Positions 2,106 through 21,451 of a stretch of 25,869 nucleotides of DNA are shown piece by piece (within the stretch, counting starts at the first letter, position 1; each line of letters opens with the position of its first letter). A program made the translations under genes and the position numbers. Under the pieces are notes generated by a model. It did no database searches and was not told the DNA's origin. It was given only the letters and a program-made list of their open reading frames with translations. This stretch comes from Candidatus Methylomirabilota bacterium (lineage in GTDB: Bacteria; Methylomirabilota; Methylomirabilia; Rokubacteriales; CSP1-6), in contig DASUPA010000342.1 of NCBI GenBank assembly GCA_036276335.1, positions 1 through 25,869 of the forward strand, read 5' to 3'.

Positions 2106-2650
2106 CGCGGCCGTCCGCGATCGCGGCCCGGCTGGCCGCGGTGAAGCTCCTCGTCATGGACGTGGACGGCGTGCTGACCGACGGCGGCCTCTACTACACG
2201 GAGCGCGGCGACGAGGTGAAGCGCTTCGACGTCCGCGACGGGCAGGGGCTGGTGCTGCTCCGCCAGGCCGGCGTGCTGACGGCCGTGATCACCCGCCGGC
2301 GGTCGGAGATCGTGGAGCGGCGGGCCGACGAGCTCGGGATCGTGGAGGTCCACCAGGGCGCGACGGACAAGCGCGCGGTGCTCGAGGCGCTGCTCGCCCG
2401 CCGCGGTCTCGCGGCCTCCGACACCGCCTACGTCGGCGACGACGTCGGCGATCTCCCGGCCATGGCGCTCGTCGGCATCCCGATCGCCGTCGCCGACGCC
2501 GTCTCCCCGGTGAGGCACGCCGCCGTCTACGTCACGCGCGCGCGCCCCGGCCACGGCGCGATCCGGGAGCTCTGCGACCTGATCCTGAGCGCGAAGCGGG
2601 CGCCGTCGGCGACGCGCGCGCGGACGGCGCGCGCCCCGCGCCGCGTCTAG
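2102..2650 (+). CDS. kdsC: 3-deoxy-D-manno-octulosonate 8-phosphate phosphatase (HAD family, KdsC/YrbI)
   Basis: MDVDGVLTDG (DxD motif I), FDVRDGQG and YVGDDVGDLPA. GTG at 2102 overlaps the previous stop (GTGA). Its TAG stop overlaps the convergent anti-sigma stop (CTAG 2647-2650). Confidence 0.9.
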   Translation: MTRPSAIAARLAAVKLLVMDVDGVLTDGGLYYTERGDEVKRFDVRDGQGLVLLRQAGVLTAVITRRRSEIVERRADELGIVEVHQGATDKRAVLEALLARRGLAASDTAYVGDDVGDLPAMALVGIPIAVADAVSPVRHAAVYVTRARPGHGAIRELCDLILSAKRAPSATRARTARAPRRV

Positions 2651-3345
2651 TACGCGAGCGCCGGCTCCGTCGACGTGCGGACGCGGACGAAGTAGTCCTT
2701 GAACCGCTCGAGGTCGTCGACGGAGACCATGTCCGAGACGAGGAAGCAGGCCACGTCGCGCTGCCGCCAGACCCAGGTGACGAAGCCGCTGTCCTTCACC
2801 AGCGCGGGCCGGTAGCGGTCGATCTGGACTCGGTTCCGGTCGGGGACCTTGAGGCCGTCGGCGGGCAGGGCGACGTAGGTCACCAGGTGCCCGTCGAGGT
2901 CGCGGTAGTGCATTGCCACCCCCCGCTGGCGCAGGAGGTACACGGGCTCGGCGCTGACGAATTCCAGCCGGTCGTCGCCGATGAAGACGCTGGTGAGCCC
3001 GATGCCGGTCTGCTGCTGGAGCCACGGCAGCGCGGCCGGGTAGACCTGGGACTGGCGGCTGCCCCACATGAGCGCCCGCGAGTGCTCGCTGACGACGGCG
3101 CGGACCAGCTGGTCGACGGGGTCCAACGGCTGGAGCCGCGGCAGCACCGGCAGCATGAAGAGCGCCAGCACCATGGCCGTGGCGGCGGCGGCGAGCAGCG
3201 GCGACAGCCACGCCGGGCGGCGGGACGACGCCGGCTGATGGGCCTGGACGATGGCCGCCCGCAGCGAGGCGGGGGCCGTGTAGCGCGGCAGCTCGGCGGC
3301 GAGCCGGCGCCCCAGCTGCTCGTCCGAGTCGGGCATCGGCGTCAT
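2647..3345 (-). CDS. Transmembrane anti-sigma factor (RsiW/PrtR-like architecture), no intact ZAS motif
   Basis: Directly downstream of an ECF sigma. Short cytoplasmic RYTAPASLRAAI segment, one TM helix (WLSPLLAAAATAMVLALFML) and a periplasmic domain (VVSEH...AMHY...WVWRQ...LVSD). Confidence 0.72.
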   Translation of the reverse strand: MTPMPDSDEQLGRRLAAELPRYTAPASLRAAIVQAHQPASSRRPAWLSPLLAAAATAMVLALFMLPVLPRLQPLDPVDQLVRAVVSEHSRALMWGSRQSQVYPAALPWLQQQTGIGLTSVFIGDDRLEFVSAEPVYLLRQRGVAMHYRDLDGHLVTYVALPADGLKVPDRNRVQIDRYRPALVKDSGFVTWVWRQRDVACFLVSDMVSVDDLERFKDYFVRVRTSTEPALAY

Positions 3346-3413
3346 TGGATCGAGGTCCGCGAGGCCGGCCCGGACCGCAGGTGGCCTGATCGAGGCGGGC
3401 GTGGCGCCGTCAC
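3342..3413 (-). CDS. Putative 23-aa bridging mini-ORF MTAPRPPRSGHLRSGPASRTSIQ
   Basis: GTG 3413-3411 overlaps the sigma stop (GTGA). In-frame TGA 3344-3342 overlaps the anti-sigma ATG (ATGA). Translated by hand; no evidence of expression. Confidence 0.3.
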   Translation of the reverse strand: MTAPRPPRSGHLRSGPASRTSIQ

Positions 3414-3919
3414 TTCTCGTAATCCTTCAGGAGGCCGCGCAGCCGCTCCTTGGCGCGGAAGATGCGCGATTTCACCGTGCCCACCGGGCACGCCATGACG
3501 CGGGCCACCTCCTCGAGCGGCATGCCTTCGACTTCTGCGAGCAGCAGCACCGTGCGGAACTCCTCGGGCAGGCGGCGCATGGCGCGCTCGAGGTCGGTGT
3601 GGGCCTCCATGGCCCTACCTTCGTCCAGCGGCGTGTCGTGGAACATCGGCGTGTCCCAGTCCGGGACGCCGTCCTCGGCGACCGCCGCCTCGCGCTCGCG
3701 CAGCCGGTAAAACGTGAGGAACGTGTTCCTCAGGATCTGGAACAACCACGCCCGGAGATGGGTTCCCGGCTGGAATCGATGGGAGAACCGGAAGGCGCGC
3801 AGGTAGGTCTCCTGCACGAGGTCCTCCGCCTCCGGCGGATTCCGCGTCAGGTACATCGCGAAGTTGTAGAGCGCGTTGAGGTGCTGCAGGGCGTCCCGCT
3901 GGAACTCGGGATCCGCCAC
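3410..3919 (-). CDS. ECF RNA polymerase sigma-70 factor (SigH/SigR-like)
   Basis: Region 2 AEDLVQETYLRAF...LRAWLFQILRN and region 4 LPEEFRTVLLL...EEVARVMACPVGTVKSRIFRA. GTG start with SD GGAG 6 nt upstream, overlapping the end of folK. Confidence 0.92.
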   Translation of the reverse strand: MADPEFQRDALQHLNALYNFAMYLTRNPPEAEDLVQETYLRAFRFSHRFQPGTHLRAWLFQILRNTFLTFYRLREREAAVAEDGVPDWDTPMFHDTPLDEGRAMEAHTDLERAMRRLPEEFRTVLLLAEVEGMPLEEVARVMACPVGTVKSRIFRAKERLRGLLKDYEK

Positions 3920-3922
3920 CGC

Positions 3923-7324: not shown

Positions 7325-8580
7325 GCCATGGTCTCCCCCGCCACCAGGTCCTCGAACGTCTCCCGGCGGCGCACGATCGTGTAGCGGTCGCCGTCGACGA
7401 GCACCTCGACGGGCCGCGGTCGCGTGTTGTAATTCGACGCCATGACGAAGCCGTAGGCGCCCGCGCTCATCAGGGCGAGGAGGTCGCCCTCTTCCGGCCG
7501 CGGCATCTCGCGGTCCTTGGCGAAGAAGTCGCCCGACTCGCAGATGGGACCCACCACGTCCGCCGTCTCCTTCGCGGCGCCGGCGCGCGCCTGGGCCACC
7601 GGCAGGATCTCGTGATACGAGTCGTAGAACGCGGGCCGGATCAGGTCGTTCATCGCGGCGTCCACGACCACGAAGTTCTTCGTGTCGGTCGCCTTGTGGT
7701 ACAGGACCCGCGTGAGCAGGGCGCCGGCGTTGCCGACGATGGACCGGCCCGGCTCGAGCAGCACCGTGGCGCCGAGCTCCCTGAGCGCCGGCAGCAGCAC
7801 GGTCGCGTACTCGGCGTGGCTGGGCGGCGTCTCGTCGCGGTAGCGGATGCCGAGCCCCCCGCCGACGTCCACGATGGAGATCTCGATGCGCCGCTCGCGC
7901 AGTGTCTTCACGAGGGCGGCGACGCGGGCGGTGGCGTCGGCGAAGGGGGCGCTCTTCGTCAGCTGCGAGCCGATGTGCATCTGGGCGCCGACGACCTGGA
8001 GCCCCGGCAGCTTCGCGGCCTGCTCGTACGCCGCGAGCGCCTGCGTGTACGGAATGCCGAACTTCGAGGTCTTGAGCCCGGTCGAGATGTACTTGTGGGT
8101 GTGCGGGTCGACGTCGGGGTTCACGCGCAGCGCGACCGGCGCCCGCGTGCCCGCCTCGCGGGCCACCTCGTCGAGCACGCGCAGCTCGCTCAGCGACTCC
8201 ACGTTGAACATGAGGATGTCGGCCTTGAGCGCGTCGCGCATCTCCTCGCGGGTCTTGCCGACTCCCGAGAAGATGATCTTCTTCGGCGGCACCCCGGCCC
8301 TGAGCGCGCGGTGCAGCTCGCCCCCCGACACGATGTCCGCGCCGGCGCCCGCGCGGGCCAGCGTGGCGATCACGGCGAGGTTGGAGTTGGCCTTGATCGC
8401 ATAGCAGATGACGTGCGGCACGTCCTTGAAGGCGGCGTCGTAGGCGCCGTAGCTCTCGAGCAGCGCGGCCTTGGAGTAGACGTAGGCCGGCGTTCCCACG
8501 GCGTCGGCCAGCCGGGCCAGGGAGACGGACTCGCAGTGGAGACCGCCGTGACGATACGTGAAGTGCGTCACCGGAGTCAT
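7321..8580 (-). CDS. lysA: Diaminopimelate decarboxylase
   Basis: PLP lysine motif YAIKAN, GADIVSGGE, SKFGI, HIGSQ, GGGLGI, EPGRSIVG, GPICESGD and AGAYGFVMASNYN. Confidence 0.97.
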   Translation of the reverse strand: MTPVTHFTYRHGGLHCESVSLARLADAVGTPAYVYSKAALLESYGAYDAAFKDVPHVICYAIKANSNLAVIATLARAGAGADIVSGGELHRALRAGVPPKKIIFSGVGKTREEMRDALKADILMFNVESLSELRVLDEVAREAGTRAPVALRVNPDVDPHTHKYISTGLKTSKFGIPYTQALAAYEQAAKLPGLQVVGAQMHIGSQLTKSAPFADATARVAALVKTLRERRIEISIVDVGGGLGIRYRDETPPSHAEYATVLLPALRELGATVLLEPGRSIVGNAGALLTRVLYHKATDTKNFVVVDAAMNDLIRPAFYDSYHEILPVAQARAGAAKETADVVGPICESGDFFAKDREMPRPEEGDLLALMSAGAYGFVMASNYNTRPRPVEVLVDGDRYTIVRRRETFEDLVAGETMA

Positions 8581-8589
8581 GTGCAGGAG

Positions 8590-8618
8590 ATCGTTGCCCT
8601 TTTCGAGCGTGAAGTCAA
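8590..8618 (-). promoter_or_regulatory. Putative sigma70 promoter for lysA-dapA-dapB (internal to the operon)
   Basis: TTGACT (8618-8613), 17-nt spacer, AACGAT (8595-8590), then 9 nt to the lysA ATG. The -10 lacks the first T. Confidence 0.45.
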
Positions 8619-9694
8619 GGCACGCTCACCGCGACCTCGTTGGAGCGGACGCTCTCGTTGGCGCGCGTGCTCGTGTCCTGCGCCGTGACCACGTACCGGT
8701 AGCGTCCCGGCGGCAGGCCGCGGTCGACGAAGGTCGTCGCCGGCGGCCGGACCGATCCGACCCGTCCGAACGCGCCGCGCCCGGCGGCCCGGTAGACGAC
8801 GTGGGCGCCGACGTCGGCGGCCGGGCTCGCCGTCCACGACAGCCGCACCTCGCCGGCCGACGGGATCGCCACGAGGTTCGCCGGCGGCGCGGGCGCGGTC
8901 GTCTTCACCGGCGTCGACGTCACCGGGGGCGTGGGCGATCCCGTCGTGCTCGCGTCCCCCTCGGTCCGGACGGCCCGGACCGCGTACCGGTACGAGCGAT
9001 CGTTGGTGAGCCCGCGGTCGATGAATGACGTCTGGCCGGGCCCGGTGCGGCCGACCACGGCGGGCGTGGTGGCGGCGTCGGGGGCGCGCAGGATCTCGTA
9101 CGTGAGGATCCCGCTCGGCGGCGCCCCGTCCGCGAGCCGCGCGGGCGGCTGCCACGCCAGGTGGACCTCGCCGTCGCCGGGCGTGGCCTGCAGACCGACC
9201 GGCGCCTCGGGCGCCGCGATGTAGGTGACCGACGCGCGCGTCGACGGCGCGCTCAGGCGGCCGCGCGCGTCGCTGGTGACGACGACGTAGGTGTAGCGGC
9301 GGCCGATGGTCAGGTCCCGCCGGTCCGTGTAGAGGACGCGGCCGTCCCGGACCTCCGCCGCGGGCGGATCGTGCAGGCGGAAGGTGGCGATCTGCGTGTA
9401 GCCCGCGATCCGATCGTCGACGCGCATGGCCGCGCGGGGCTGGCCGAGCCCGGCATCCTCCGCGCGGTAGAGGCGCGCCTCGCCGGGGTCGAAGAGGCGC
9501 GTGTTGTCCACGCGGCGGCGCGGCAGCGTCCACGCGAGGTCGATGCCGTCCTCGCGGGCGCGCGCGCCGAGGTCGGTGACCGGCTGCGGCAGGCGCACGG
9601 TCGGAGGAACGGGATTGCCGCGCTTGCCGCAGGCGGCGAGCGCCAGCACGGCGAGGGCGACGGCGGCCGCCCGCGCGAGGGGCGTGGCCCTCAC
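8615..9694 (-). CDS. Lipoprotein with LptM/LppL-like N-terminal motif and three fibronectin type III domains
   Basis: GTG 9694 (GTGA overlap with argH). Signal peptide with lipobox LAA-C22, then CGKRGNPVPP. Three repeats of P..L.A...../L.W..P/Y...R/.D..L....Y.Y.V (FN3 pattern). Confidence 0.75.
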   Translation of the reverse strand: MRATPLARAAAVALAVLALAACGKRGNPVPPTVRLPQPVTDLGARAREDGIDLAWTLPRRRVDNTRLFDPGEARLYRAEDAGLGQPRAAMRVDDRIAGYTQIATFRLHDPPAAEVRDGRVLYTDRRDLTIGRRYTYVVVTSDARGRLSAPSTRASVTYIAAPEAPVGLQATPGDGEVHLAWQPPARLADGAPPSGILTYEILRAPDAATTPAVVGRTGPGQTSFIDRGLTNDRSYRYAVRAVRTEGDASTTGSPTPPVTSTPVKTTAPAPPANLVAIPSAGEVRLSWTASPAADVGAHVVYRAAGRGAFGRVGSVRPPATTFVDRGLPPGRYRYVVTAQDTSTRANESVRSNEVAVSVP

Positions 9695-11765: not shown

Positions 11766-12755
11766 CTACCGACGGGACAGGCGGCGATACCGCGCGACCG
11801 CGCGGTTGTGCTCGTCGATGCTCATCGAGAAGTGGTGGCGCTTGTCGTCCTGGGCCACGAAGAAGAGGTACTTCACCGGAGCGGGGTCCAGTGCCGCCTC
11901 GATGGCGCCGAGGCCCGGGCTCGCGATGGGGCCGGGCGGGAGCCCGGTCCGCACGTACGTGTTGTACGGATGGTCGGTGAGCAGGTCCGCCCGGCTCAGC
12001 GTCCGGCGCTCCTTGGCGACGGCGTACTGCACGGTCGGATCGGCCTGCAGCGGCATGCCGATGCGCAGGCGGTTCCAGAACACCGCAGAGATCAGGCGCT
12101 GCTCGTCCTTGATGACCGCCTCGCGCTCGATGATCGAGGCCAGGGTGAGCAGCTGGTGGACCGACAGCCCGCGGGCGCGCGCCCGATCGGCGAGCGCGGG
12201 ACCGAGCTTGCTCCGCATGCGCTGGACCATCCGCCCGAGCATCTCCTCCGCGGTCATCCCGCGGACGAAGTAGTACGTGTCGGGAAAGACGTAGCCCTCC
12301 GCGCTGGCGGCCTCGATGCCGTGGGCGGCGAGGAACGTCGTGTCGGCGGCGACGCGCGCCACCTCCTCGGCGGTGGTGAGCTGCTCGGCCTCGAAGGCAC
12401 GCCCGAGCTCGGCGATGGACGCCCCCTCGGGGTGCAGGACCGCCCGGCGCCGGACCTGCCCGCTCTCCAGCAGCGTGACGACGTCCCACGTCGTGGCGTC
12501 CCTGGGCACCTCGTACTCGCCCGCCTTGAGGCTGCGCGGAACGCCGCGCGCGACGGCGGTGGCCACGAACGCCACGCGGCTGCGCACGACGTCGGCCTCC
12601 TTCACGCGGCTGGCGATGCCCAGGATGCTCTCGTGCGGCGGAATGAAGACGGTGAGGGGCCCCTCGCGGAGCGCGGGCGGCGGCGTGACCGCCATCCAGA
12701 CGACGGCCCCGAGCCCGGCGGCCAGCGTGAGGAGGGCGACCCGGCGCAGCGTCAT
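11766..12755 (-). CDS. mltG: Endolytic transglycosylase MltG (YceG family)
   Basis: N-terminal TM anchor, LKAGEYE, EGYVFPDTY, catalytic Glu in LASIIERE, PLQADPTVQY and YNTY...GLPPGPIASPG. Start taken at ATG 12755 (MTLRRVALL). Confidence 0.93.
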   Translation of the reverse strand: MTLRRVALLTLAAGLGAVVWMAVTPPPALREGPLTVFIPPHESILGIASRVKEADVVRSRVAFVATAVARGVPRSLKAGEYEVPRDATTWDVVTLLESGQVRRRAVLHPEGASIAELGRAFEAEQLTTAEEVARVAADTTFLAAHGIEAASAEGYVFPDTYYFVRGMTAEEMLGRMVQRMRSKLGPALADRARARGLSVHQLLTLASIIEREAVIKDEQRLISAVFWNRLRIGMPLQADPTVQYAVAKERRTLSRADLLTDHPYNTYVRTGLPPGPIASPGLGAIEAALDPAPVKYLFFVAQDDKRHHFSMSIDEHNRAVARYRRLSRR

Positions 12756-12873
12756 GATGTCGAGTGTACCCTGCGGCTCGCCGGAGCCGGAAAACCCGCG
12801 CCCGGGGCGCCCGGCGTCCGGCCCCGGGCGCCGCGGGCCGCCCGGGGCCCGCATGGGACGCGACCGCCGTCTT

Positions 12874-12882
12874 TGGTATACT
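12874..12882 (+). promoter_or_regulatory. Putative extended -10 promoter for rpoA
   Basis: TG-g-TATACT, about 46 nt upstream of ATG 12929. SD GGAGG at 12919-12923. Confidence 0.6.
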
Positions 12883-12928
12883 GACGGGCCTTGGGGTATC
12901 GCCCCCTTACTCTGCCACGGAGGTCCGC

Positions 12929-13942
12929 ATGCAGGAGCTGCAGCTCCCCACTCGCCACGACTGGAACGCCACGGAAAAGGTGTACGGCAAGATCGTCATC
13001 GAGCCGTTCGAGCCCGGCTTCGCGCTGACGGTCGGCATCGCCTACCGCCGCGTGCTCCTGTCGGCCATCCACGGCGCCGCGCCGACCTGGGTGAAGATCG
13101 AGAACGTCCTCCACGAGTTCTCGCACCTGCCCGGGGTCCAGGAAGACACGCTCGACATCATGATGAACCTCCGGAAGGTGACGTTCGCGCTGCACGTCAA
13201 CCGCCCGAAGATCCTTCGCCTCAAGGCGCAGGGCACGCGCGCGGTCAAGGCCGGCGACTTCGAGCCGGATTCGGACGTGGACGTCCTCACGCCCGACGTG
13301 ACGCTGGCCACGCTCGACAAGGACGGGATGCTCGAGATGGAGGTGTGCATCGAGCGCGGCCGCGGCTACCAGCCGGCCGAGAAGCGCGAGCCCGAGGCGC
13401 TTCCGATCAACGCCATCCTCCTCGACGCCGACTTCTCGCCGGTCAAGCGCGTGAACTTCCACGTCGAGCCGGTCCACACCGGCAAGAGCGACGGTCCCGG
13501 CCCCGAGCGGCTCGTGCTCGAGGTCTGGACGGACGGCAGCGTGACGCCGCAGGCGGCCGTCGGCGAGGCCTCGCGCATCCTGCAGGACCACTTCACGCTC
13601 CTCACGAACTTCCCCGAACTCGTCCTGCAGGAGGAGGAGGACGCCGAGCGGGGCGAGCCGCGGCCCGGCGCGGAGCTCAACGACAACCTCTTCCGCAACG
13701 TCGACGAGCTGGAGCTCTCCGTGCGCGCCTCGAACTGCCTGAAGACGGCGAACATCCGCACCATCGCCGACCTCGTCCAGAAGAGCGAGGCCGAGCTCCT
13801 CAAGACGAAGAACTTCGGCAAGAAGTCGCTGAACGAGATCAAGACCATCCTCGGCGAGATGGGCCTCTCGCTCGGCATGCGCCTCGACCCCGAAGAAGTC
13901 GAGCGCCTCCGCTCCCAGTTCGAACGCGCCTACGAAGCCTAG
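12929..13942 (+). CDS. rpoA: DNA-directed RNA polymerase subunit alpha, stand-alone and divergent copy (337 aa)
   Basis: RRVLLS, VLHEFS.LPGVQED, GRGY.PAE, DA.FSPV, WTDGSV.P and alpha-[17 protein letters not shown]...[18 protein letters not shown] 5 nt before ATG 12929; the track's start at 12764 is spurious. Confidence 0.95.
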
Positions 13943-18138: not shown

Positions 18139-20100
18139 CTAGGCGAGGAGCGGAAGCTGCATCCGCACGGTCGGCCGGTCGTCCAGGCGCGCGCTGGCGA
18201 CGCTGCCGCCGTGCAGCTCGAGCAGCCGGCGCACGATCGCCAGCCGCATTCCGGTCACGGGCGCGTTGGAGGCGCCGGCGGCGCTCACGTCGAGCATCGC
18301 CGACGCTCCGTCGCGCTCGAGGCGGAGGCGGACGCGCCCGCCCGTCGGCGTCACCCGCAGCGCGCCCTCGAGCACCCGCTGGAGCACCTGGCGCAGCCGG
18401 CGCCCGTCACCGCTGACCCGCGCGTCGAGCACGTGCTCGCTGAAATCGATGGCGACGTTCTTCGCGCGCGCCTCTTCGCCGACGGCGCGCGCGGCGAGCT
18501 CGACGACGTCGACGAGCGCCACCGGGACGCGCTCGAGCTCGAGGCCGCCGGTCACGAGCCGCGCGAACAGCCGCTGCAGCTCGCGCGTCTCGCGGCGCCG
18601 CCGGCGGTCGTCCACCGCCACCGCCGCGCGCCGGGCCAGCTCGCACGCGAGAGCGACGTCGTCGTCGCTCAGCGGGCCCTCCTCGCCGACCCGCACGAGC
18701 GTGAGCGCGCCCAGCGCGCGGCGACGGGCGACCAGCGGCGCGCACACGTAACCGCCGACCCCGAGCTGCCCGAGGAGCACGCGCTCCTCGGCGCTGCCGC
18801 GGCTCTCCATCTCTTCCGGCGTCGCGCCCGTGTAGCGCCACTGCACCACCTGCGTGCTCAGGGCGCGGCCGAGCGCGCTGTCCGGCGGCGGCGCCGCCGC
18901 CTGGCCGCCGAGCAGGACGGCGGCGGCCCGCTCGGCGACCGCGTTGCGGTGCGCCAGGGCCACCCGCCGGTAGCCGCCGTCGCGATCGCGGAGGTCGATG
19001 GCGCACCAGTCGGCCACGGCCGGCACGGCGAGGCGCGCCACGCCGGCGAGCGCGGAGGCGGCGTCGCGGCCGGCGAACAGGGCCGTGGTCGCGTCGGCCA
19101 GGAACACGCTGCGCTGCCGCGCCGCCTCGGTCGCCCGGCGCGCGCGCTGCGCGTCCTCGAACAGGCGCGCGTTCCGGATGGCCGCCCCGACGCGGTCGGC
19201 CGCCAGCTGCAGGAAGCGCGCCTCGTCCGCGCTGAAGCCCCGGCGCTGCCGGCGCGCGGCGTGCACGACGCCGACGAGGTCGCCGTCGACCGACACCGGG
19301 ACACCGATGAGCGAGTGGACGTGCGCCGCGCGCAGGGGACCGAGGTCCACCTCGGCGGCGGCGTCCTCGAGGATGACCGGCTGGCCGCCGGCCGCGATGC
19401 GGCCGCTCAGCCCTTCGCCGATCGGCACGCGAGCCTCGAACCCGGCCGCGGCCTCCAGGCCGACGGCGTGCGCCAGCGCCAGGTGCGCGCCGTCCTCGGT
19501 GGGCAGCAGGATCACCGTCGTGTCCGCCTCCACCGCGTCGTGGAGGCGCTCGAGGATCCCGTGCAGCAGGTCGTCGAGCGACCGGTGCGTCAGGACGGCC
19601 TCGGTGATCGACTCCAGCCGCTGGACCATCTCCACCGCGGCCTCGACCTCCGCGCGTGCCATCTGCTCGCGCCGCAGCCGCTGGTCGCGCTCGTGCTCGA
19701 GCCGCTTCTGCTCGGTCGCGTCCATCATCAGGCCGCGCAGCCGGCCGGAGCCCGCCTGGTGCACCCGGCCCCGCAGCCAGATCACCGTGCCGTCCGCCTT
19801 CGTCGCCCGGAACTCGTGATCCACCACGTGGCCGCGGGCCGCCTCCTCGTACGCGCGCTGGGCCTGCTCGCGGTCGCGGGCGTCGACCAGGGTCGACCAG
19901 AAGTCCTGGGTGGCGAGCCAACGCTCCAGCGGATAGCCGAGCAGATCCTCGGCCCGGCGGCTGACGAACGTGAAGCGCTGCGTGGTGGGCTCGAGCTCCC
20001 AGACGATGCCGTCGAGCTCGTGCACCAGATCCCGGAAGCGACGCTCGGCGCCGTCGTCGGCGATATGCGTGGATCCGGCCGCAGACGCGAGGGTGTCCAT
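18139..20100 (-). CDS. PAS-GAF-GAF sensor with degenerate histidine-kinase C-terminus (pseudokinase), 653 aa
   Basis: PAS_3 (IVWE...FVS...LLGY...DRE...EFR...DG..IW) and two GAF domains. The HATPase-like tail has no H-box, N-box or D-box residues. Start ATG 20100. Confidence 0.78.
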   Translation of the reverse strand: MDTLASAAGSTHIADDGAERRFRDLVHELDGIVWELEPTTQRFTFVSRRAEDLLGYPLERWLATQDFWSTLVDARDREQAQRAYEEAARGHVVDHEFRATKADGTVIWLRGRVHQAGSGRLRGLMMDATEQKRLEHERDQRLRREQMARAEVEAAVEMVQRLESITEAVLTHRSLDDLLHGILERLHDAVEADTTVILLPTEDGAHLALAHAVGLEAAAGFEARVPIGEGLSGRIAAGGQPVILEDAAAEVDLGPLRAAHVHSLIGVPVSVDGDLVGVVHAARRQRRGFSADEARFLQLAADRVGAAIRNARLFEDAQRARRATEAARQRSVFLADATTALFAGRDAASALAGVARLAVPAVADWCAIDLRDRDGGYRRVALAHRNAVAERAAAVLLGGQAAAPPPDSALGRALSTQVVQWRYTGATPEEMESRGSAEERVLLGQLGVGGYVCAPLVARRRALGALTLVRVGEEGPLSDDDVALACELARRAAVAVDDRRRRRETRELQRLFARLVTGGLELERVPVALVDVVELAARAVGEEARAKNVAIDFSEHVLDARVSGDGRRLRQVLQRVLEGALRVTPTGGRVRLRLERDGASAMLDVSAAGASNAPVTGMRLAIVRRLLELHGGSVASARLDDRPTVRMQLPLLA

Positions 20101-20115
20101 CGCGCCGGCAACGAG

Positions 20116-20130
20116 GCAAGCGGCATGCCA
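20116..20130 (-). promoter_or_regulatory. Putative sigma54 (-24/-12) promoter
   Basis: TGGCATGCCGCTTGC versus consensus TGGCACG-N4-TTGC, with the exact 10-nt GG-to-GC spacing. Predicted TSS about 20104. Confidence 0.65.
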
Positions 20131-20276
20131 GACCGGTCGTTGTAACAACGCCTCGAATCGCCGCGCGAACGCGGCACGCGTCACGGTCGCGCTGGCGTCC
20201 GCAACGCCGCCGCGGCGGGCCGGCTTCGCGTGGCGCCGGGCCTGCCGTGTCAACCGCGTCCCGGGCGACTCCGCCC

Positions 20277-20297
20277 TGTGCACGGAGCGGGTGCACA
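20277..20297. promoter_or_regulatory. Inverted repeat matching an NtrC-type enhancer (TGCAC-N7-GTGCA)
   Basis: TGTGCAC-GGAGCGG-GTGCACA, a perfect 7-7-7 palindrome about 180 bp upstream of the predicted sigma54 TSS. Confidence 0.5.
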
Positions 20298-20335
20298 TGG
20301 AAACTCGGTTGCAGCGCCGGTGTCGCCCCCGCGAG

Positions 20336-21451
20336 TCAGGGCACGAGGGCCGCGCGACTGATCGACGTCGTCTCGCGGTTGTGCCACTCGGACTCCGTGA
20401 ACGCCTTGTTGATCTGCTCCAGCGGATACTTGTGGGAGATCAGCCGGTCGAACGGAAAGCGCGTGCGGTTGCGCACGAGGAAATCGAGCGCGCGCGGGAT
20501 CACCCACGCGTCGTACATGATCACGCCGACGATCCGCTTGGCGCCCCAGACCAGCTGGGCGGGCTCGAAGTCGACCCTGGCGCCCCGCGAGATGGTGCCG
20601 ATCTCCAGATAGGTCCCGCCCGGCCGCAGCATGTCGATGCCCTCGGGAATCACCTGGGGGAAGCCGACGAAGTCGCACGCGACGTCGGCGCCGAGGCCGC
20701 CCGTCCACTTGCGCACCAGCGCCACCCGGTCCCGGCGCTCCGTGATCTCCCGCACGTTGATCACGTGATCGGCGCCGAAGGCGGTGGCCAGCTCCAGCCG
20801 GCCCGGGAGCTGGTCGACGACGATGACGGTCGCGGCGCCCATGTCCCTGGCCACGGCCGCCGCCTGGACGCCGAGGCCGCCGGCGCCCTGGATCACCACG
20901 CTGCCGCCGAACCGCAGCCCGGCCTCGTGCAGCCCGAAGATCACCTGCGAGAGCGCGCAGTTCACCGGGGAGACGAGCTCGTCCGTCAGCGCGTCGGGCA
21001 CGGCGAAGACGGCGCCGCCGGGCCGCAGGTAGTAGTACTCCGCGAAGGCGCCGTGGAAGTGCGGGAACTCCGAGGGGCCGCGCGGCCGCTCGATCTTGGC
21101 GGGGCAGGCGGCCGGCTGCTTGTTCAGGCAGACGGCGCAGCGCCCGCACGGATAGAAGTAGGTGTACGCGACGCGGTCGCCCTCGCGCAGCGGCCGGCCC
21201 AGCGAATCCGTCTTCACGTTCCGGCCGAGCTTCGCCACCCGGCCCATCATCTCGTGCCCGAAGATCCAGCCGTCCTCCGGCAGCCGCAGCGGCGCGTCGC
21301 CGCGCCAGAAGTGCAGGTCGGAGCCGCACACGTTGGCGAGCGAGACCTTGACCAGGATGGCGTCCGGCTCGATGTCCGGCAGCGTCACGTCGCGGAGCTC
21401 GAACGGCTTGCCCGGGCCGAGGAACACGGCGGCCTTGCCGGTGGTGGCCAT
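20336..21451 (-). CDS. Zinc-binding medium-chain dehydrogenase/reductase
   Basis: CGSDLH, GHE motif, structural Zn site CGRCAVC...C, GAGGLG Rossmann motif, and Asp after beta-B (VVDQ) suggesting NAD(H). SD AAGGGAG. Confidence 0.9.
   Translation of the reverse strand: MATTGKAAVFLGPGKPFELRDVTLPDIEPDAILVKVSLANVCGSDLHFWRGDAPLRLPEDGWIFGHEMMGRVAKLGRNVKTDSLGRPLREGDRVAYTYFYPCGRCAVCLNKQPAACPAKIERPRGPSEFPHFHGAFAEYYYLRPGGAVFAVPDALTDELVSPVNCALSQVIFGLHEAGLRFGGSVVIQGAGGLGVQAAAVARDMGAATVIVVDQLPGRLELATAFGADHVINVREITERRDRVALVRKWTGGLGADVACDFVGFPQVIPEGIDMLRPGGTYLEIGTISRGARVDFEPAQLVWGAKRIVGVIMYDAWVIPRALDFLVRNRTRFPFDRLISHKYPLEQINKAFTESEWHNRETTSISRAALVP

Follow-up and report, generated by a model that had tools for sequence, protein, structure and literature searches.

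The stretch of DNA analysed here, hereafter the window, comprises 25,869 nucleotides (nt) of contig DASUPA010000342.1 from a Candidatus Methylomirabilota bacterium (assembly GCA_036276335.1) of the order Rokubacteriales. At 12929..13942 on the + strand, the window carries a stand-alone, full-length rpoA paralog (P0001), a 337-amino-acid (aa) open reading frame (ORF) for the α subunit of RNA polymerase (RNAP). In relatives of this genome, this form of α, termed type A or A, is accompanied by a second α, termed type B or B, encoded in the ribosomal operon, and comparison of the two suggests that they have divided the two positions of the α dimer between them. The window gene is a full-length RpoA: its product scores 327.6 bits against the TIGR02027 equivalog model (curated cut-off, 227.8), and PF01193, PF01000, and PF03118 all exceed their gathering scores within one chain. 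An AlphaFold2 (AF2) model, with 115 homologues in the input, has a mean predicted local distance difference test score (pLDDT) of 93.5 and the canonical α architecture. Foldseek matches for this model are RNAP α chains exclusively, and the N-terminal domain (NTD) superposes on Thermus α with a root-mean-square deviation of 1.8 Å.

The N-terminal domain is followed by an acidic interdomain linker (aa 235-250; 13631..13678, +) with a pLDDT of 60-68 in the AF2 model and by a canonical α C-terminal domain (CTD; 13679..13855, +), which matches PF03118 at 4.4e-26 and contains the equivalents of E261, R265, N268, C269, G296, K298, and S299 (E. coli rpoA, b3295, the numbering used throughout for aligned residues). 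Two recognizable CTD motifs are a 12-aa stretch containing SVRASNC (13709..13744, +) and KNFGKKSL (13808..13831, +). Beyond the CTD lies an extension helix (aa 321-336 in the AF2 model; 13889..13936, +). Its pattern, ...RLR[SA]Q[YF]ER[AS][YF]E[AT], is conserved in A, is not found in B or in the single-copy α subunits of the class, and aligns to the C-terminal tail of Caulobacter α (7ye1). The Caulobacter chain is also the closest match of the window protein in the PDB, at 285 bits, compared with 216 bits for E. coli α.

The assembly motifs of the window protein were compared with those of 112 type-A sequences, 34 type-B sequences, 12 single-copy α subunits of sister orders, and 112 diverse α representatives drawn from a 1.8-billion-protein library. 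In the 17-aa region of motif 1 and helix H1 (aa 25-41, E. coli 29-45; 13001..13051, +), R44 and R45 are retained as R40 and R41 of the window protein, in columns that are invariant in 115 α subunits. The VLHEFS motif (E. coli 64-69; 13106..13123, +) is likewise kept in the window protein; it is hypervariable in B, and its H66 and E67 are at least 90% conserved in 115 diverse α subunits. By contrast with these kept residues, R191 is replaced by H, K86 by R (R82 of the window protein; 13172..13174, +), L43 by Y, N41 by I, R33 by P, G36 by A, L31 by F, and L39 by V. Also altered is a 17-aa loop (aa 179-195, E. coli 187-201; 13463..13513, +) that is 2 aa longer than its E. coli counterpart, VEAARVEQRTDLDKL, and lies, with lower pLDDT, between strands 172-181 and 193-201 of the AF2 model. 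There, R191 and G193 are lost and nothing corresponds to T196, D197, or Y198. The window protein lacks the determinants of the βʹ side, namely K86 and the R191/T196/D197 loop.

Several of these replacements reach well beyond one genome. Among the diverse representatives, position 191 is R in 91%, position 86 is K in 96%, and position 43 is L in 86%; R191, T196, and D197 are gone from the 112 type-A sequences, and K86 has become R in 97% of them. By this comparison, the changes at R191, K86, and L43 are more than chance. An initial annotation, made from the window sequence without database searches, had described the assembly motifs as rewritten. That description holds for the 187-201 loop, including the alignment of Arg191 to His and an insertion of about 2 aa, and for R33P and L43Y/F, but not for L31F, G36A, and L39V, which are lineage-wide, as is half of the altered motif 1, and shared with B (F31 and V39 are also frequent across bacteria, at 29% and 21%), or for N41I, which is restricted to a subclade making up 37% of type A. 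The only paralog-specific changes in the motif-1 region are R33P, L43Y/F, and V56P. The annotation was correct that the CTD is canonical, as the alignment and the PF03118 match both indicate, and the residues that contact UP-element DNA (R265, N268, G296, K298, and S299), together with the 261 determinant, are kept in at least 97% of type A. Arg45 is retained, as the annotation stated, but does not discriminate between the paralogs, as B keeps R45 too.

The close relatives of the window genome are metagenome-assembled genomes (MAGs) labelled Candidatus Rokubacteria, Rokuibacteriota, or Methylomirabilota. Across the order, type-A proteins are 64-93% identical to the window protein. Type B, which is 37-47% identical to A, lies in the gene order adk-infA-rpsM-rpsK-rpsD-rpoA-rplQ and occurs in related genomes both within the genus and elsewhere in the order. 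The distribution was tallied over 136 genomes, with family counts limited to those at least 90% complete. At least two rpoA matches were found in 72 of 83 such genomes in the window's own family (f1) and in all 14 in a second family (f4). In the other orders of the class, nearly all of 38 such genomes have one α (the closed G050 and G072 among them), and this single-copy α is 49-56% identical to A. Four of the 136 genomes (G020, G062, G083, and G146) are unpublished, as is one of the 112 A sequences (L029), and no conclusion rests on them. Contamination or mis-binning of MAGs as the source of the second α is excluded, as A and B share one contig in G036, G038, and G040 and the pattern recurs in more than 80 genomes.

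The window assembly itself (76% complete, 529 contigs) contains a single rpoA, of type A. A profile search of its contigs found no operon-borne α, and rplQ and rpsK are absent as well; the contig bearing the α operon is therefore simply unassembled in this genome. The same missing genes rule out the notion that the divergent copy stands alone here and that its substitutions thus occur in a single-copy gene. Four other genomes with A only (one of them the unpublished G020) are alike in lacking rplQ, and of five genomes with B only (one of them the unpublished G083), three lack mltG, the neighbor of A, and in the remaining two the contig breaks off at that gene. In the two-α families, the apparent single-copy cases are assembly gaps. 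In two genomes of the window's family, G139 and G144, neither type of rpoA is found despite completeness ratings of 97% and 91%, so that a high marker-based rating does not ensure that these loci were assembled.

A different arrangement is seen in G025, a 73%-complete genome that is the only member of family f2. It has one operon-borne α (L007, 997-1980, +), which branches with B and keeps both motif sets: the HEF of a VLHEFS-type motif as well as R191, T196, D197, Y198, L43, and S50. In this genome mltG is preceded by purA and yqgF (L168), with no adjoining rpoA. If truly single-copy, G025 may represent the unsplit state inside the order. In another order of the class, G068 has a second α 3 kb from the operon α (L146:3947-5014 and 7916-9052, both on the - strand). 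There, an extra cluster of L6-S11-rpoA2-EF-G follows rpoA-rplQ-larA, and the extra α lacks R191 and TDY and keeps HEF. This looks like an independent duplication that included ribosomal-protein paralogs.

The relationship between A and B is most evident at the 76 positions for which conservation reaches at least 75% among the single-copy α subunits of sister orders and among the diverse representatives alike. Gone in A and kept in B are L43 (Y/F in A), L83, K86 (R in A), N125, R191, G193, T196, and D197, and the 187-201 loop of A varies in both sequence and length, with just its terminal E-R-L fixed. Gone in B and kept in A are H66, E67, F68, A112, and the CTD residues S263, C269, and L300. 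VLHEFS, invariant in A and in single-copy α subunits, is replaced in B by RSADT, KNPLV, SAGAE, and others, with deletions in some. Meanwhile, R45, R191, T196, D197, Y198, and K86 are each kept in 88-100% of B copies (K86 is K in 97%). The same division is apparent at the level of domains. In A, domain 2 and the CTD are 0.51 and 0.71 identical to the sister-order consensus, with within-group conservation of 0.85 and 0.95, the latter the highest of any domain. In B, domain 1a is conserved (0.53), and both domain 2 (0.38; within-group conservation, 0.67) and the CTD (0.44) are relaxed. The single-copy α subunits of the other orders, closed genomes included, keep all residues that are lost in A or in B.

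These losses can be placed on determinants assigned by earlier work. In the footprinting of Heyduk (1996), as cited in PMC3294249, β protects α residues 30-55 and 65-75 and βʹ protects residues 175-185 and 195-210. Binding of βʹ is blocked by K86A, by V173A, and by insertions at 180 and 200 (PMC3294249). R191 of E. coli α forms salt bridges with D410 and D413 of βʹ (PMC9177976), and R191C, the rpoA101 allele, is temperature sensitive and yields an unstable RNAP. As the losses map onto these published determinants, A appears to have shed determinants of the βʹ side and B a determinant of the β side; judged from the alignments, the losses of the two paralogs are reciprocal. The initial annotation had proposed that the window protein is sub-functionalised for one position of the α dimer or works as a heterodimer, and it had anticipated that the α encoded in the operon would retain R191 and might lack residues of the β face. 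B in the relatives of the window genome answers to this prediction, with R191 kept and the near-universal H66-E67-F68, within the segment 65-75 that β protects, lost, and the reciprocal motif loss supports the proposal itself. Had the single-copy rpoA genes of the phylum carried the same substitutions, the proposal would have been undermined; in the other orders of the class, single-copy genes retain every one of the residues in question.

Dimer-helix positions 43, 46, 50, and 230 vary in step between A and B: one family has Y43 and A50 in A with T46, I50, and P230 in B, and another has F43 and S50 in A with V46, A/V50, and L230 in B. These concerted changes suggest a co-adapted heterodimer interface, in a comparison that is confounded by phylogeny and amounts to two clades. 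Additionally, among the 112 diverse representatives, R191 is missing from P0031, P0050, P0070, P0073, P0075, P0079, P0118, P0131, P0137, and P0143, and HEF is missing from P0115, P0119, and P0130. This set of about a dozen sequences may include split or specialised α subunits from further uncultured lineages.

In two families, the reduction of B has gone further. The B proteins of f3 and f4 are 237-255 aa long and have an acidic C-terminal tail and no CTD, and the stop codon of the shortened gene overlaps the start of rplQ (L132:3956-4705, -; also L131, L133-L140, and L143-L145). Five near-complete f4 genomes contain exactly one PF03118 domain each, located in A, which rules out a split B with its CTD in a separate ORF. 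Because A is the only source of an α-CTD in f4, it is hard to see A as anything other than a constitutive subunit of the polymerase. Both copies are under purifying selection, with ratios of nonsynonymous to synonymous substitution rates (dN/dS) of 0.05-0.20 for A and 0.03-0.33 for B; for the window gene against orthologs of the same genus, the ratio is 0.10-0.13. Between genera, A changes no faster than B.

The gene for A lies outside the ribosomal operon and has expression signals of its own. In the window, an extended -10-like promoter element, TGGTATACT (12874..12882, +), is located 46 nt upstream of the ATG, and a strong Shine-Dalgarno sequence, GGAGG (12919..12923, +), ends 5 nt before the start codon; GGAGG or GGGGG before the ATG is conserved across type-A loci. 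Of 91 distinct upstream regions of type A, 86 have TATAMT no more than 110 nt upstream of the gene, 63 of these in the extended form TGnTATAMT, against a background of 1.3% of random 110-nt windows from type-A loci. A generic scan for two-hexamer promoters and terminators detected neither a complete sigma-70 site nor a terminator, which leaves the -10 element as the one conserved part. In many type-A upstream regions, GTCAAC or TGTCAA is conserved 35-50 nt upstream of the -10 element, too distant for a -35 box, and a G-rich/C-rich hairpin-like stretch lies downstream of it (window 12758-12928; L051-L130). A structured 5ʹ leader was considered and rejected, as the window segment folds no better than shuffled sequences (z -0.65) and has no Rfam match.

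Upstream of A, mltG (YceG family; PF02618 at 8.7e-81) is transcribed divergently (11766..12755, -) and, as a conserved neighbor, marks the type-A locus. Of 71 sufficiently flanked loci, 65 preserve the arrangement argH-plsC-mltG<>rpoA-A, down to 64% identity, and by this comparison the type-A locus is old. The surroundings in the window are genes of aspartate-family and arginine biosynthesis, including dapB, lysA, argH, a class I/II aminotransferase gene (read as dapL), an aspartokinase gene, thrC, and hom. Further away are an extracytoplasmic function (ECF)-type sigma factor gene (3410-3922, -; Sigma70_r2 and r4_2), an overlapping 259-aa ORF that follows it (the pair spanning 2647-3922, -), has no Pfam match, and is probably an anti-sigma factor, and a gene for a large PAS-GAF protein (18139-20439, -) in which Pfam detects no kinase domain.

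Taken together, A and B may have arisen by a duplication at the base of one Methylomirabilota order (Rokubacteria) and have both been kept since, with B staying in the rpsM-rpsK-rpsD-rpoA-rplQ operon. The core enzyme would be built on an oriented A/B heterodimer. A would occupy the α-I position, on β, for which it keeps R45, VLHEFS, a well-conserved domain 2, and a canonical CTD, and its CTD would handle the contacts with UP elements and activators. B would occupy the α-II position, on βʹ, for which it keeps R191, T196, D197, Y198, and K86. In each copy, the determinants for the other position would have decayed, and the CTD-less B of two families would leave a polymerase with a single α-CTD. 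We infer the positions of A and B, and the non-use of homodimers, from comparison. An oriented heterodimer with A as α-I and B as α-II, as an independent variant of the α1/α2 pair of Francisella, is probably the correct description of this system. We lean only slightly towards the broader claim that the heterodimer is obligate in all members of the order, with a CTD-less βʹ-side α and one α-CTD in two families, and that it forms an intermediate towards an Rpb3/Rpb11-type platform.

Several points weigh against this description. The interaction of A with B, their stoichiometry, and their positions are deduced by comparing sequences, and R45 and most dimer-helix residues are kept in both copies, so that the sequences are compatible with homodimers as well. 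K86R is a conservative change, and R191C polymerase of E. coli, unstable as it is, still assembles. The assignment of VLHEFS to the β face comes from footprinting cited second-hand and not from computed contacts. The window's own genome shows type A alone, and the control from f2 consists of a single MAG, 73% complete, which cannot prove that an unsplit α keeps both motif sets. Finally, A and B fall together in the best free tree with weak support of 69 in the Shimodaira-Hasegawa-like approximate likelihood ratio test (SH-aLRT).

The origin of the pair bears on one competing explanation, in which A came by horizontal transfer, for instance from a proteobacterium, and is a xenolog functionally redundant with the native α. 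This idea draws on the Caulobacter chain as the top PDB match, on the C-terminal tail common to that chain and A, and on the location of A outside the operon. However, A and B have in common a derived motif, EPFExG[FY]ALTVG (comprising L31F, G36A, and L39V), and the nearest non-Rokubacterial representatives to A are just 45-49% identical. In a 108-row maximum-likelihood tree, the A clade (SH-aLRT 100) and a clade of B with L007 (SH-aLRT 99) lie on one side of a branch, albeit among weak deep nodes, with stem branches of 0.44 for A and 0.25 for B. A tree that forces A, B, and the single-copy α subunits of the class together is 25 log-likelihood units better than the free quick search, with a P value of 0.81 in the approximately unbiased test (p-AU). 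The shared derived motif and the trees therefore give no sign of transfer from outside, and transfer from Alphaproteobacteria in particular, which the match to 7ye1 had prompted, is unsupported. Moreover, the type-A locus is stable across the whole order, and reciprocal decay speaks against redundancy. A xenologous A is highly improbable, and duplication within the lineage followed by faster evolution is probably the best fit.

The other explanations accept A as native and differ in the role they assign to each copy. A and B could form homodimers, A2 and B2, in separate RNAP pools that are used under different conditions, such as a housekeeping enzyme alongside one that is rich in CTDs and responsive to activators. 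R44, R45, T38, and most of helix H1 are kept in both copies, A has a promoter separate from that of the ribosomal operon, and a minor α1 homodimer form is considered possible in Francisella. However, a homodimer fills both the β and βʹ positions and should keep both motif sets under selection, and each paralog has one hypervariable set; in f3 and f4, B2 would give an enzyme without any α-CTD; and in the two-α families there is no demonstrable absence of either A or B. Two alternative polymerases are accordingly unlikely. That A is the sole working α, with B a decaying relic or in a role outside the polymerase, is less likely still. A does score higher against TIGR02027 (about 315-335 bits, compared with 275-305 for B and about 205 for CTD-less B), and domain 2 and the CTD of B are relaxed or lost, but B is under purifying selection, keeps its βʹ-side residues and R45 almost throughout, and is translationally coupled in the operon across the order. 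Furthermore, a sole working A would have to dispense with the βʹ salt-bridge loop that every single-copy α keeps. The least credible alternative is that A is a free, α-like factor whose CTD serves to titrate UP elements or activators. The CTD is indeed the best-conserved part of A; yet A also has a complete NTD in which R44/R45 are invariant, the dimer helix and VLHEFS are retained, and domain 2 is well conserved, all in a canonical, confidently modelled fold, and it supplies the only α-CTD of f4 genomes.

The oriented A/B heterodimer has its closest parallel in RpoA1 and RpoA2 of Francisella tularensis (PMC3294249, PMC1891329; PDB 6WMP, chains A and B). In both lineages the ribosomal operon holds one rpoA gene and a second, divergent rpoA lies at another locus, both copies start from full-length α subunits, and complementary loss of β-side and βʹ-side determinants implies an oriented heterodimer. 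The lineage-specific duplication of Francisella, with accelerated evolution of both copies, probably has its counterpart in the Rokubacterial pair. The Rokubacterial pair differs in being of independent origin, in Methylomirabilota rather than Gammaproteobacteria. The window protein is not an ortholog of Francisella RpoA2: in phmmer it scores 166.5 bits against 6wmp_A and 122.9 bits against 6wmp_B, compared with 285 against the Caulobacter chain, and in trees A groups with Methylomirabilota α subunits. R45 is kept in both Rokubacterial copies and is Gln in Francisella α2; the eroded elements are VLHEFS 64-69 (in B) and the R191-D197 loop with K86 (in A), whereas in Francisella they are R45 and K200. 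The operon copy would be on the βʹ side here, whereas the Francisella operon copy, α1, is on the β side. In addition, the operon copy lacks a CTD in two Rokubacterial families.

Other systems resemble the pair in part. With canonical single-copy RpoA (E. coli b3295), A shares the three-domain architecture, the fold, R44/R45, and the DNA-binding residues of the CTD, but it differs in lying outside rpsM-rpsK-rpsD-rpoA-rplQ under its own promoter, in K86R, L43Y/F, and the eroded loop of variable length, in its extra C-terminal helix, and, in relatives, in having a second α beside it. Archaeal Rpo3/Rpo11 and eukaryotic Rpb3/Rpb11 (AC40/AC19) pair a large subunit with domain 2 on the β-like side, comparable to A, with a reduced subunit on the βʹ-like side, comparable to B with its relaxed domain 2 and losable CTD. 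An analogy of this type was drawn for Francisella in PMC3294249. Unlike the reduced subunit of those systems, B has a domain 2 that is complete though relaxed, no partners like Rpb10 or Rpb12 are implied, and the likeness is one of analogy and not homology of the duplication. Two rpoA genes per genome also occur outside Francisella in Chloroflexus and Streptomyces avermitilis, in pairs with no drastic substitutions in the dimerisation or β/βʹ regions that were judged possibly equivalent (PMC3294249). The Rokubacterial pair, in contrast, is clearly reciprocally eroded. A literature search for Rokubacteria together with rpoA found no paper.

To our knowledge, bacterial RNAP outside Francisella and its close relatives is assumed to begin with two identical α subunits that form a homodimer. 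If the proposed heterodimer is correct, the Rokubacteria would provide a second, independent, and far more widespread case of a split α, extending across an entire order of uncultured bacteria that are abundant in soil, of which this analysis covered more than 100 genomes. The division of labor would be unusually clean, with the β-side motif, domain 2, and the CTD in one copy and the βʹ salt-bridge loop in the other. Reciprocal erosion would then serve as a natural mutagenesis map, suggesting which residues matter only in α-I or only in α-II. There is also a practical consequence: although rpoA serves as a single-copy marker, a pair of rpoA genes is the normal state in this order and should not be mistaken for contamination. 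The CTD-less operon α predicts a polymerase with one α-CTD, with implications for the reading of UP elements and of class I/II activators, and such an enzyme would offer a natural test of one versus two α-CTDs in promoter recognition. More broadly, the pair would represent a natural bacterial intermediate towards the asymmetric Rpb3/Rpb11 platform of archaea and eukaryotes.

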